A stretch of 64,000 nucleotides of DNA from Candidatus Contendobacter sp. (GTDB lineage: Bacteria > Pseudomonadota > Gammaproteobacteria > Competibacterales > Competibacteraceae). The DNA is taken from contig JAVMKH010000176.1 of assembly GCA_031732935.1 (NCBI GenBank), forward strand, positions 3,913-67,912, given 5' to 3'. This document shows positions 25,894 through 38,808 of this stretch, piece by piece (position 1 is the first letter of the stretch; every line of letters starts with the position of its first letter). The notes below the pieces were generated by a model that saw only the letters and a program-made list of their open reading frames with translations, did not search any database and was not told the origin of the DNA. The translations under genes and the position numbers were made by a program.

Positions 25894-26253
25894 CTAAAGG
25901 AGCGGTGGCGATTCCTTGCCGCTGGTCGAATCCGCCAATGTCGATGCCGCGATTCGATTCCGGCCCCGCCGGGGCCGGTCGCCGGGCTGGCTCGGTTCCG
26001 CCGACGCGTTTGGGAGTCGACGCGACGAGGTCGGTGGTCGGCTAGCTTCGGCGATGGATCCGCCGCGCGCCCGCCGCAGCCAACCTAGCATTCGGTGTTC
26101 CAGCGCGTCCTGCCCGGCGGGCGTCAGATCCCGGAAAATCAGCGCCCCGGTCCCCACCAGCAGCATCAATCCGCCCAGGAAAGTAACCAGTGGTTGCAGG
26201 AAGGCGATCGTCAGCGCCGCCAGGACGACCAGCAGGATGTGTCGAATTTTCAT
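25894..26253 (-). CDS. Small membrane protein (2 N-terminal TMs, low-complexity tail), coupled to the PP2C gene
   Basis: MKIRHILLVVLAALTIAFLQPLVTFLGGLMLLVGTGALIF; GGAGG RBS; ATGA overlap with the PP2C stop at 26250. Confidence 0.65.
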   Translation of the reverse strand: MKIRHILLVVLAALTIAFLQPLVTFLGGLMLLVGTGALIFRDLTPAGQDALEHRMLGWLRRARGGSIAEASRPPTSSRRLPNASAEPSQPGDRPRRGRNRIAASTLADSTSGKESPPLL

Positions 26254-27236
26254 GGGATATCCTCCGTGGGTGAATGCTCGACGCGCCCCGGCCGGCGCGC
26301 GAGGATGATGGTGCAGTTGTCGTCCGGGTGGCTGCGCTGTCGGTAAATCTCTTCCGTGAGTTCGGCCAGCAGCGTGTCCGCCAGTTCCTCGAGCGGGCGG
26401 CGCGCCTGTCCCAGCAGCGTTGGCCAGCGTTGGATGAACGCCTGGGGATTGGCAAGGCGCCAGAGACCGTCGCTGGCGAGAAGATAAATCCGCCCCGGTT
26501 CCAGCGCCAAGGCGCGGCGGTCGTCCAACCCGCGCAGGAACAGCGGTAGGTTCCCCTCGTGCAGTTCGAACAGATCCGCCGCGATGGCCGTGGGATAAAG
26601 CCAGGGAGCGCCCAGGGTGCTGCCCAACCCAAAGGCCTGGCTGATCTGGGAATTGGCTTGAGCGTGGACCTGTTGAAACCACTGCGCGCTATCCAACAGG
26701 CCGAGCAGGGCCATGTGGGTGGCCGGGACATGATCCACGGTCAGACAGCGAACCCGCCGCGCGTCCACGACGTAGAGTCGTGAATCGCCCACGTGAAACA
26801 GCAAGGCGGAACCGCTGGGAGGAATTTCGAGCACGATCAAGGTGCAGCCCGTTTCCAGTCCGGCCGCCTGGAATTGCTGGCGCAGCCGATGGTGCAGCGC
26901 GTTCAGGCCCGTGGTGATCGGGGCCAGGTCCACGGTCGCCGGCAGCTCAAGTAGACCCTCAAGGGTTTTTTCGGTCGCTTCCCGGCCATGACTGTGGCCA
27001 CCCATGCCATCGAGGAGGGCCAGTCGCCGGTGGCCGGGCGGCCAGTCGGGCAGGCGCAGTTCGGTTTCCCGTTCGCCCCATAGGAAGCGGGCCTGTCCCT
27101 GGCCATCGATGATGAGGTAATTGTCTTGGTTTTCCTGGCGCCCGTGACCGGTAGGCGAACGCAACGAGCGCACGGCGATTTCCAGGGGTGGATCGGAAGG
27201 GAACGGCATACGGTCGGAAACGTCCGTGGGGTTCAT
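26250..27236 (-). CDS. PP2C-family Ser/Thr protein phosphatase
   Basis: RQENQDNY, LLDGMGGH, GCT, HVGDSRLY, LASDGLW, DDNCT (all metal-binding Asp residues present). Confidence 0.9.
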   Translation of the reverse strand: MNPTDVSDRMPFPSDPPLEIAVRSLRSPTGHGRQENQDNYLIIDGQGQARFLWGERETELRLPDWPPGHRRLALLDGMGGHSHGREATEKTLEGLLELPATVDLAPITTGLNALHHRLRQQFQAAGLETGCTLIVLEIPPSGSALLFHVGDSRLYVVDARRVRCLTVDHVPATHMALLGLLDSAQWFQQVHAQANSQISQAFGLGSTLGAPWLYPTAIAADLFELHEGNLPLFLRGLDDRRALALEPGRIYLLASDGLWRLANPQAFIQRWPTLLGQARRPLEELADTLLAELTEEIYRQRSHPDDNCTIILARRPGRVEHSPTEDIP

Positions 27237-38700: not shown

Positions 38701-38808
38701 TTGTCCGGGCGAGTGGTCAAGCGGGTCCGGCGTGGCTACGAAACCAACATTCCGATCTTGACCCGCGGTCAGCTCGAAAGCGCCGGTTTTGGCGTTTCGG
38801 TGCAGTGA
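35761..38808 (+). CDS. Exported CsgG/FlgO/TolB_N-like domain protein with 10 PEGA-like repeats
   Basis: Signal-like KVWGLLLGLVIAFWLPAGPARA; AAVVEF..., AAELGRLYNLDAVVTG...ITVTARLIDT; ten ~71-aa YRLTV..DP..A.VRL....Y.PGV.L.PG.Y.VEV...GYE repeats. ATG 35761 overlaps the kinase stop (ATGA); 35797 is an alternative. Confidence 0.8.
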   Translation: MNPTVKFVGEWGMGKILLMKVWGLLLGLVIAFWLPAGPARAAGTVPEARMTAAVVEFQVRGGLDEQSGAIIADQMMAAIANTGRFVLRDRLPLSAAAKIAKASELGETGLLDPKTAAELGRLYNLDAVVTGGVYKLGDLITVTARLIDTRNASLLRSGQIQGKDIDTIQIKINELATMVTAPPDAPKLYALTVKTDPTDANVRLLNSPKPYQPGIQLAAGEYEIEVTRSGYVTRKEKLRIADRDLTANIALEKAKYGLTIRPEPADAQVRLLNSPTAYQPGVALVPGDYEVEVTREGYVARKFPVRIVDGDVAVQVALQKTPLPPPPSQYRLTVLPDPPQAMVRLLNSRTPYQAGVRLPPGEYQIEVTLDGYEPSQIPVRIAGSDVTLPVGLKKIERPTAYRLTVQPDPATAQVRLVDSSAVYQPGVQLTPGRYTVEVTQAGYEPAWVTVQIVDSDVMTPVKLTRKAEEPPKPSSYRLTVHADPADARIRLLNAKTPYQSGVALAPGNYTVEVSRQGYETKQIPIRIADSDVTVPVTLTKEAKPEPYRLTVRADPADARIRLLNAKTAYQPGVALASGNYTIEVSRPGYETKQIPVRIADGDVTVPVTLTKEAPPEQYRLTVQTDPPGAQVRLRGIKTAYRPGVTLPPGSYAVEVSQSGYETKQVTARIVDGDVTIPVALVKLAEPTQYRLTVQTDPPGAQVRLRGAKTGYRPGVTLPPGSYTVEVSQSGYETKQVAVRIADGDVTLPVTLTRQVEPTQYHLTVQTDPPGAQVRLRGTKTGYRPGVTLPPGSYTVEVSQSGYETKQVSVRLVDGDVTLPVTLAKEAVPEQYRLTVRANPTDAKVRLVNSSFTYRPGVPLPPGNYVVEVTGRGYETKRESVRIVDGDVTLPVELERSASTSATATPTPSAPTRPGEWRISAVQADGSLDGPDRSEFMRIFGGYVGRTVTRDTLLDGALRFYQSTGVTLGFAVRTGGSGTAELSGRVVKRVRRGYETNIPILTRGQLESAGFGVSVQ

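Follow-up and report, generated by a model that had tools for sequence, protein, structure and literature searches.

A Ser/Thr kinase and pseudokinase locus of Competibacteraceae, probably composed of a signalling core and a separable MCE cassette with a predicted hydrolysis-dead nucleotide-binding subunit

In TagQRST-PpkA-PppA, the threonine phosphorylation pathway of the H1-T6SS (T6SS, type VI secretion system) of Pseudomonas aeruginosa, the kinase PpkA is opposed by the PP2C phosphatase PppA. TagQ is an outer-membrane lipoprotein, TagST an ABC complex, and TagR, which is FGE-sulfatase-like over residues 127-359, binds both TagQ and PpkA (PMC13713981). TagST requires ATP hydrolysis, since the TagT K44A substitution abolishes its function, and was not seen to interact stably with the remaining sensor proteins (PMC13713981). 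In tripartite MCE systems, such as PA3211-PA3214 of Pseudomonas aeruginosa and Mpc of Brucella abortus (a chimeric Mla-Pqi system), a MlaE-like permease, an ATPase, a single-MCE protein and an outer-membrane lipoprotein are combined, and the C-terminal helices of the MCE protein form a needle of ∼170 Å (PMC13631591; PMC12436622). A kinase-transmembrane-FGE-sulfatase architecture is described for the 'Proteo1' family of proteobacterial Ser/Thr kinases (bioRxiv 10.1101/2025.01.12.632604). Here, a cluster of nine genes at positions 25894-38808 of a 64-kb window (the whole stretch of DNA analysed, 64,000 nucleotides, C176:3913-67912) is compared with these systems. The window has a GC content of ∼65% and belongs to a Candidatus Contendobacter metagenome-assembled genome (MAG) of the Competibacteraceae (4.3 Mb, 240 contigs). 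An original prediction had described the cluster as a trans-envelope phosphorylation system built around an MCE/Mla transporter and as a T6SS-free analogue of TagQRST-PpkA-PppA; what it stated about the Tag proteins is correct (PMC13713981). In the literature, nothing relevant was found that joins MCE proteins with Ser/Thr kinases and FGE domains.

The nine genes and their domains could be confirmed by calling of open reading frames (ORFs), Pfam searches and motif inspection. Close relatives of the window MCE gene are all found in MAGs of Candidatus Contendobacter, Competibacter or Competibacteraceae (Gammaproteobacteria). The features of the cluster are as follows.

25894..26253, minus strand: small membrane protein, 119 aa, with one N-terminal transmembrane (TM) helix and a basic Ser/Pro-rich tail (ORF and TM scan)
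26250..27236, minus strand: PP2C-type Ser/Thr phosphatase, 328 aa, predicted cytoplasmic (Pfam SpoIIE 35.8 bits; PP2C and PP2C_2 weak)
27237..27431, no strand: divergent intergenic region of 195 bp between the PP2C and pseudokinase genes (ORF coordinates), presumed to be a shared promoter region
27432..30116, plus strand: pseudokinase, 894 aa (Pfam Pkinase 39.2 bits, FGE-sulfatase 173 bits)
30150..30953, plus strand: MlaE-type permease, 267 aa, first gene of the cassette (PF02405, 94.7 bits)
30946..31683, plus strand: degenerate ABC nucleotide-binding subunit (NBD), 245 aa (motif inspection in 27 orthologues)
31676..32722, plus strand: single-domain MCE protein, 348 aa (PF02470, 48.8 bits)
32744..33664, plus strand: TPR lipoprotein, 306 aa, last gene of the cassette (TPR_12 71 bits; lipobox LAAC with Gly at +2)
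33755..35764, plus strand: active Hanks-type Ser/Thr kinase, 669 aa (Pkinase 130.8 bits, FGE-sulfatase 175.5 bits)
35761..38808, plus strand: exported PEGA protein, 1015 aa (PEGA 150 bits; 10 PEGA repeats at residues 189-831)

The locus is read here as a composite of two separable modules, a Ser/Thr signalling core and the four-gene cassette, with a probability of roughly 55%. The distribution of the two modules was surveyed in 93 genomes of the order, with E < 1e-90 as the threshold for a pseudokinase orthologue. Pseudokinase orthologues were present in 60 genomes from 10 genera, and the cassette MCE protein in 28 genomes from 6 genera. All 28 cassette genomes contain the pseudokinase, and a cassette without it was found in none of the 93 genomes, whereas 32 of the 60 pseudokinase genomes lack the cassette. 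Thus, the Mla-like genes and the kinases are co-conserved in one direction only, and the claim that the system is built around the MCE transporter does not hold. At seven cassette-less loci that were inspected, the same chromosomal site is occupied by the genes for the small TM protein and PP2C, followed by the pseudokinase gene, directly by the kinase gene and usually by the PEGA gene. No remnants of MlaE, NBD, MCE or TPR genes could be detected at these seven loci. The kinase pair can do without the cassette.

The full run from PP2C to PEGA recurs in loci of six Competibacteraceae genera, with MCE identities of 56-97%. At every locus with visible flanks it is located between pgi (PGI domain) and a malic-enzyme gene, and at every cassette-bearing locus with visible flanks the cassette is enclosed by the two kinase genes, with its orientation unchanged. 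Judged from its recurrence in ∼25 independent genomes at 56-97% identity, with ratios of non-synonymous to synonymous substitution rates (dN/dS) of 0.11-0.40, this gene arrangement is not due to chance. These ratios, which cover all cluster genes, indicate purifying selection; the flanking housekeeping genes have values of 0.03-0.08, so that the cluster genes evolve several-fold faster. To explain where the cassette is present, four or more changes are needed on a pseudokinase tree, in which cassette-less loci branch as sisters of cassette-bearing loci. A tree of concatenated MlaE, NBD and MCE sequences recovered the same clades at similar depths, a result that fits vertical inheritance combined with repeated loss. 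In the simplest history, the ancestor shared by these genera would already have had the cassette, which would then have been inherited together with the kinases and cleanly deleted at least four times. At one locus (L020, G065:C92; 4479-5891) a transposase-like ORF of 470 aa splits the cassette between the MCE and TPR lipoprotein genes.

Outside the Competibacteraceae, the cassette exists on its own. Word-indexed searches with MCE and MlaE returned nearly exclusively Competibacteraceae, with two distant matches on contigs of <2 kb, and a metagenome scan with the NBD motif yielded 21 more Competibacteraceae loci and two distant ones. An exhaustive MCE search resulted in a continuum of weak relatives, seven representatives of which scored below 1e-30; an alignment search recovered six of the MCE relatives and led to loci of Magnetococcales. 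A phylum-level hidden Markov model search gave strong matches in two families with genomes of 3.3-5.7 Mb, including Magnetococcales records, and weaker matches in a small-genome family. In Magnetococcales MAGs and metagenome contigs, a stand-alone cassette could be identified whose gene content and order match the window cassette (MlaE, NBD, MCE and a TPR lipoprotein of ∼295 aa). Its relationship to the window cassette extends to all four proteins: the TPR lipoproteins have 35% identity across 253 aa (E 2e-36) and their lipobox Cys residues align, the MlaE proteins are 33% identical (E 4e-42), the NBDs are 33% identical and have the block GL[IV]P[AS]W[ST]VFENLAL..RYH in common, and the MCE proteins align over their full length. 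Thirteen contexts outside the Competibacteraceae were compared, comprising seven full cassettes from Magnetococcales-type genomes and six more divergent, partial ones from a further family. In none of the 13 was a kinase, FGE-like, PP2C or PEGA gene found within ∼8-10 kb of the cassette. The original expectation of a conserved neighbourhood is thus borne out within Competibacteraceae, where the cassette always lies between the kinases and has diverged together with them, but not beyond this family. Since the cassette was deleted at least four times with the signalling core left intact and occurs elsewhere without this core, it is regarded as accessory to the core and not as its central sensor. 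At one Magnetococcales locus (L053, 1-6839), three hybrid histidine kinase/response-regulator genes are encoded upstream on the opposite strand, with an OYE oxidoreductase gene between them and the cassette; genomes of this kind are rich in such hybrid genes.

The NBD of the cassette is degenerate. In the window protein, Walker A reads GAVNSGRR, with loss of the Lys and the Ser/Thr, the signature reads LSPLES, Walker B reads LLLVSAY, with loss of the Asp-Glu pair, and the H-loop is missing. The same or near-identical degenerate motifs are present in all 27 orthologues, while dN/dS values of 0.12-0.23 show that the subunit is maintained by selection. From these motifs the window NBD is predicted to be hydrolysis-dead. 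In the seven full outside cassettes (L112-L118), Walker A is intact (GxxxSGKTT), the catalytic Glu is replaced by Asn (LLLLDND), the signature is LTxEQ and the H-loop is missing. Because motifs are lost in all seven, the whole cassette lineage is predicted to be hydrolysis-dead. By their motifs, the Competibacteraceae copies are the most eroded of this lineage, and the Magnetococcales-type NBD looks like an ATP-binding, non-hydrolysing intermediate toward the degenerate Competibacteraceae form.

The other cassette proteins fit a tripartite MCE plan. The start of MlaE was assigned to ATG 30150, although the ORF opens at TTG 30120, and the orthologues also have 267 aa; its N-terminal extension is rich in Ser/Thr. 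The MCE protein consists of an N-terminal TM helix, the MCE beta-barrel and a C-terminal region of ∼170 aa that is predicted to be helical. An AlphaFold model of the monomer placed helices at residues 143-313, with a predicted confidence (pLDDT) of 57.9 that is too low to estimate a needle length, and the Pfam family Helical_needle gave only a faint match, in MCE orthologues. For the TPR lipoprotein (dN/dS 0.28-0.40), Pfam matches were restricted to TPR families, and no PqiC-like (ABC_trans_aux) match was obtained. Neither a STAS nor a MlaC domain was found by Pfam among the cluster proteins. No cluster protein reached any curated NCBIfam cut-off: the MlaE equivalogs gave 57-62 bits against cut-offs of 212-315 (62 against 212 for MlaE itself), and the equivalog for the MCE protein gave 50 bits against 135.

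The closest known systems to the cassette are the tripartite MCE bridges PA3211-PA3214 and Mpc, and not TagQRST. The cassette has its four-gene plan in common with these bridges: MlaE, NBD, a single-MCE protein that is extended at the C-terminus by a predicted helical region, and an outer-membrane lipoprotein. Gene order and lipobox could be confirmed. In contrast to them, its NBD is predicted to be catalytically dead, its lipoprotein is of the TPR and not the PqiC type, and it is embedded between two kinase genes. Similarity to MlaFEDB(-MlaC-MlaA) is limited to the MlaE and MlaD/MCE domains and a similar E-F-D gene order. Here, the MlaF-like subunit has lost all four motifs (Walker A, Walker B, signature and H-loop), MlaB (STAS), MlaC and MlaA are missing from the cluster, and the MlaE and MCE scores are far below the curated Mla cut-offs. 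A separate canonical Mla operon is encoded on contig C172, where the MCE domain is flanked by a shortened MlaF with intact Walker B and H-loop (ORF translations) and where MlaE and MlaC were assigned by position only. A second MlaE-F-MCE set was identified on C54. Therefore, the window cassette represents a third, specialised system of this genome.

The signalling core contains two kinase-like proteins of similar architecture. In the pseudokinase, a degenerate Hanks kinase domain is followed by a G/A-rich TM segment, a helical periplasmic spacer that resembles TPRs, and an FGE-like domain that is not catalytic. Its ORF opens at 27126, where it would overlap the PP2C gene, and the start was taken at 27432. 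In 32-33 of 33 orthologues, HQH stands in place of HRD and GFG in place of DFG. The beta3 Lys (AIK) is retained, and dN/dS values of 0.20-0.24 show that the pseudokinase, too, is maintained by selection. No orthologue of the pseudokinase domain was found in a sample of 400 genomes of Gammaproteobacteria outside the Competibacteraceae. In more distant genera, a solo pseudokinase-FGE homologue (∼41% identity) is present without kinase, PP2C or cassette. The second protein has a kinase domain, a TM helix (residues 384-402 of the 692-aa ORF that opens at 33686), a linker of PKPEP repeats and a non-catalytic periplasmic FGE-like domain; its likely start is at 33755. GAGGFG, AIK, HRD and DFG are intact in all 26 orthologues. 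In an alignment to human FGE (2aft), both catalytic Cys positions (human C336 and C341) are missing from the kinase FGE-like domain, and inspection of the pseudokinase sequence revealed no Cys in the stretch that matches the catalytic cysteines of FGE. Both FGE-like domains are therefore considered to be binding modules and not enzymes. PADLOC was also consulted, and a reading as a defence system was rejected as only generic kinase-domain matches were obtained.

The PP2C phosphatase (NCBIfam Stp1 52.8 bits, under the cut-off; dN/dS 0.16-0.20) has kept its metal-binding motifs DGMGGH, SDGLW and DDNCT in 31 orthologues. The gene of the small membrane protein abuts the PP2C stop codon, directly downstream and in the same direction. 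It is kept beside PP2C in nearly all loci with 48-91% identity, and its product has no Pfam or NCBIfam match. One cassette-bearing locus (L027, G033:C290; 5079-5537) has no PP2C gene, and the small membrane protein gene lies 159 bp from the pseudokinase gene. The PEGA protein consists of a Sec signal peptide without Cys or lipobox, a TolB-N/PelC/LpoB-type domain, ten PEGA repeats and a C-terminal domain of ∼110 aa. It had been described as an exported 'CsgG-like' protein with ten PEGA repeats; export and repeat number are right, but the fold is nearer to TolB-N/PelC/LpoB. With a model of the N-terminal domain (pLDDT 82.6), Foldseek matched TolB and PelC at E values of 1e-7 to 1e-6 and ranked GNA1162 and LpoB above CsgG as well, while CsgG itself was found at 1e-4 with a TM-score of ∼0.3. 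As the Pfam CsgG match (E 0.007) is also below the cut-off and a lipobox is missing, a CsgG identity was rejected. The number of PEGA repeats differs among orthologues. At one cassette-less locus (L045, G021:C35), no PEGA gene separates the malic-enzyme gene from the kinase gene, and the PEGA protein is therefore dispensable as well.

Compared with TagQRST-PpkA-PppA, the functional classes noted in the original prediction do recur in the window, namely a Hanks kinase opposed by PP2C, a periplasmic FGE-like domain, an outer-membrane lipoprotein and an ABC-like inner-membrane complex. However, both kinases carry the FGE-like domain as a fusion, a vWA domain is absent, and the ABC part is of the MlaE/MCE type with a dead NBD, while TagST needs ATP hydrolysis. 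Neither Fha nor any T6SS gene is present at the locus, and the occurrence of the locus does not correlate with that of T6SS. The 'Proteo1' kinases resemble the active kinase in their architecture, with the difference that the window kinase is accompanied by a pseudokinase of like layout that is specific to the Competibacteraceae.

Taken together, we infer how the cassette would assemble, how kinase and pseudokinase would pair, and where and in which direction the two modules would make contact. The Ser/Thr signalling core is specific to Competibacteraceae, with the active kinase and the pseudokinase each displaying a non-catalytic FGE-like domain in the periplasm. The two would act as a pair in which the pseudokinase may be the allosteric or scaffolding partner, and their FGE-like domains may bind proteins as in TagR. 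The cytoplasmic PP2C would reverse the phosphorylation. The small membrane protein and the long periplasmic PEGA-repeat protein usually accompany this core. The cassette would form a conduit or scaffold that spans the envelope and works without ATP hydrolysis. Because it lies inside the operon and never occurs without the core in Competibacteraceae, we lean towards a cassette that is co-expressed with the core, and probably physically coupled to it, in those species that have kept it. The most plausible contact would be between the TPR cap or the MCE needle and the FGE-like domains. Some coupling of cassette and kinases has about an even chance in total, divided between an accessory input and a phospho-regulated target, and where it is present it may be optional and confined to one family.

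Several observations weigh against this picture. Since the pgi and malic-enzyme genes on either side are equally syntenic throughout the family, conserved gene order is weak functional evidence when taken alone, and synteny within the family was rejected as proof of function. Neither tree resolves its deep nodes, and the cassette may have been spread by recombination between relatives. Because the MCE model is of low confidence, the span of the envelope is drawn only from the analogy with PA3213 and Mce1. Three overlaps are present within the run (8 nt at 30946/30953, 8 nt at 31676/31683 and 4 nt at 35761/35764), in agreement with the overlaps or very short gaps that had been reported for most junctions, but the kinase probably starts at 33755, 90 nt after the end of the TPR gene, which leaves room for an internal promoter. 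Ser/Thr kinases number at least 13 in this genome, alongside ∼25 FGE-like domains and five or more kinase-FGE fusions, and a kinase-FGE gene next to any given cluster is therefore less surprising than it would be in most genomes. A paralogous FGE-like/kinase/PEGA neighbourhood was observed at C183:2280-5316, and a second TolB-N-like and PEGA protein, 52% identical in its N-terminal domain, at C216:9671-10561. Transcription signals were not informative. In the 195-bp divergent region, which is shared with PP2C and the small membrane protein as had been proposed, a single sigma-70-like match was present (minus strand, 27394-27367), a count that does not exceed the shuffle expectation, and a consensus scan for terminators was uninformative, with fewer terminator-like sites than in shuffled sequence.

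The alternative that survives best is that the cassette is an unlinked passenger, inserted into or captured by an ancestral operon and merely transcribed there, with an envelope-lipid task of its own and subject to loss by drift. This is somewhat unlikely. It would account for the repeated loss of the cassette without its neighbours and for its autonomy elsewhere, and in a genome crowded with kinase-FGE genes such a neighbourhood is less surprising. Moreover, lipid transport is redundant in this genome, as both the canonical MlaFEDCB and the second MlaE-F-MCE set are available. Against it, the cassette has been kept in the same slot under purifying selection across six genera while diverging to ∼56-60% identity, and in 28 genomes it has never moved away from the kinases.

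It is rather unlikely that the MCE/Mla-like complex and the TPR lipoprotein are the upstream sensor of envelope perturbation, activating the kinase via its FGE-like domain with PP2C in opposition, as in TagQRST-PpkA-PppA. The same functional classes are present, the TPR lipoprotein gene is directly upstream of the kinase gene, and the Pro-rich linker of the kinase could carry the FGE-like domain away from the inner membrane. Also, the absence of cassettes without kinases in Competibacteraceae, with the reverse being common, is what would be expected of an accessory input. However, about half of the core-bearing genomes lack the cassette altogether, rather than having it relocated, and therefore it cannot be an obligate sensor. 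Its autonomy outside the family also argues against this role, TagST is a different ABC type that needs ATP hydrolysis, for which the window NBD is dead, and the likeness of the TPR lipoprotein to TagQ is one of class only.

Conversely, the MCE bridge could be under the control of the kinase, pseudokinase and PP2C. Reversible phosphorylation at cytoplasmic parts, in the dead NBD or at the N-terminus of MlaE, would then take over from ATP in controlling gating or assembly. A dead NBD under purifying selection does need a non-catalytic role, canonical MlaF is regulated by its STAS partner MlaB, and the Ser/Thr-rich N-terminal extension of MlaE could serve as a substrate. Nevertheless, this is quite unlikely, as the Magnetococcales relatives of the cassette work without an adjacent kinase and the large periplasmic domains on both kinases would be left unexplained.

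With regard to T6SS, the 64-kb window contains neither a T6SS nor an FHA gene, so that 'T6SS-free' is true of the window, but not of the genome. A search of the genome revealed seven FHA proteins and a T6SS cluster at C169:52019-65107 (tssCBA, then fha, tssK, tssL, tssM, tagF and pppA) with no kinase gene. The kinase-less fha..tagF-pppA layout recurs in Competibacteraceae (L092-L094, L096-L099). At L090, a kinase gene is located just past tagF on the opposite strand, and no pppA match was found there. The contig of the T6SS also carries a kinase-FGE paralogue (C169:18117-21675), 67% identical in the kinase domain, with a probable PP2C gene directly upstream that was assigned from its N-terminal sequence only. 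A role of the kinase pair in trans, as the PpkA/TagR that this T6SS lacks beside its Fha, TagF and PppA, is suggested by the FGE-like nature of TagR and the FHA proteins but is very improbable, since tssC is present in 78 of the 93 genomes regardless of cassette or core, since four of seven sampled genomes without the core have the same kinase-less cluster and must therefore employ another kinase, and since the paralogue with its own PP2C is closer to the T6SS.

Some features elsewhere in the window were noted. At 19713-23228, just upstream of pgi, an ORF of 1171 aa contains an unusual fusion of three enzymes, a GH18 glycosyl hydrolase, a polysaccharide deacetylase and a family-2 glycosyltransferase similar to chitin or poly-N-acetylglucosamine (PNAG) synthases. 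In an 888-aa protein at 43950-46616, nucleoside diphosphate (NDP)-forming acyl-CoA synthetase domains are fused to a GNAT acetyltransferase at the C-terminus, the architecture of Pat-type protein acetyltransferases. A low-GC island at 47441-50523 (∼35% versus ∼65% GC) was probably acquired horizontally; it encodes proteins of 622 and 305 aa without Pfam or PADLOC match, followed by a 95-aa helix-turn-helix antitoxin-like protein of the dnstrm_HI1420/HigA type.

As the association of kinases and cassette is optional and restricted to one family, it does not establish the wider proposal of a new system for phosphorylation across the envelope. The most solid new element is the conserved tripartite MCE module with a TPR lipoprotein and a predicted hydrolysis-dead NBD. 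Its embedding between kinase and pseudokinase is real, but optional and limited to this one family. A bolder idea, which we consider doubtful, is that the dead MCE bridge with its TPR cap would probe envelope integrity or contact in Competibacteraceae by docking the FGE-like domains, such that disturbance of the envelope would be converted into Ser/Thr phosphorylation by the TagQ/TagR-PpkA logic on a lipid-transporter chassis. More broadly, MCE-TPR modules with a dead ATPase might be a recurrent sensory or regulated device that is wired to different signalling systems in each lineage.

It is still debated what energises MCE/Mla machines and which way they transport lipids. The cassette family is a natural variant in which the NBD is predicted not to hydrolyse ATP and is yet under selection, and would allow a direct test of an ATP-free MCE bridge. 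For the signalling field, the locus offers a conserved kinase and pseudokinase pair with TagR-like periplasmic domains, and sister species that differ only in the presence of the cassette are ready-made comparisons for coupling between the two modules. As glycogen-accumulating organisms, the hosts are abundant in wastewater plants, and their envelope signalling would be of some applied interest.

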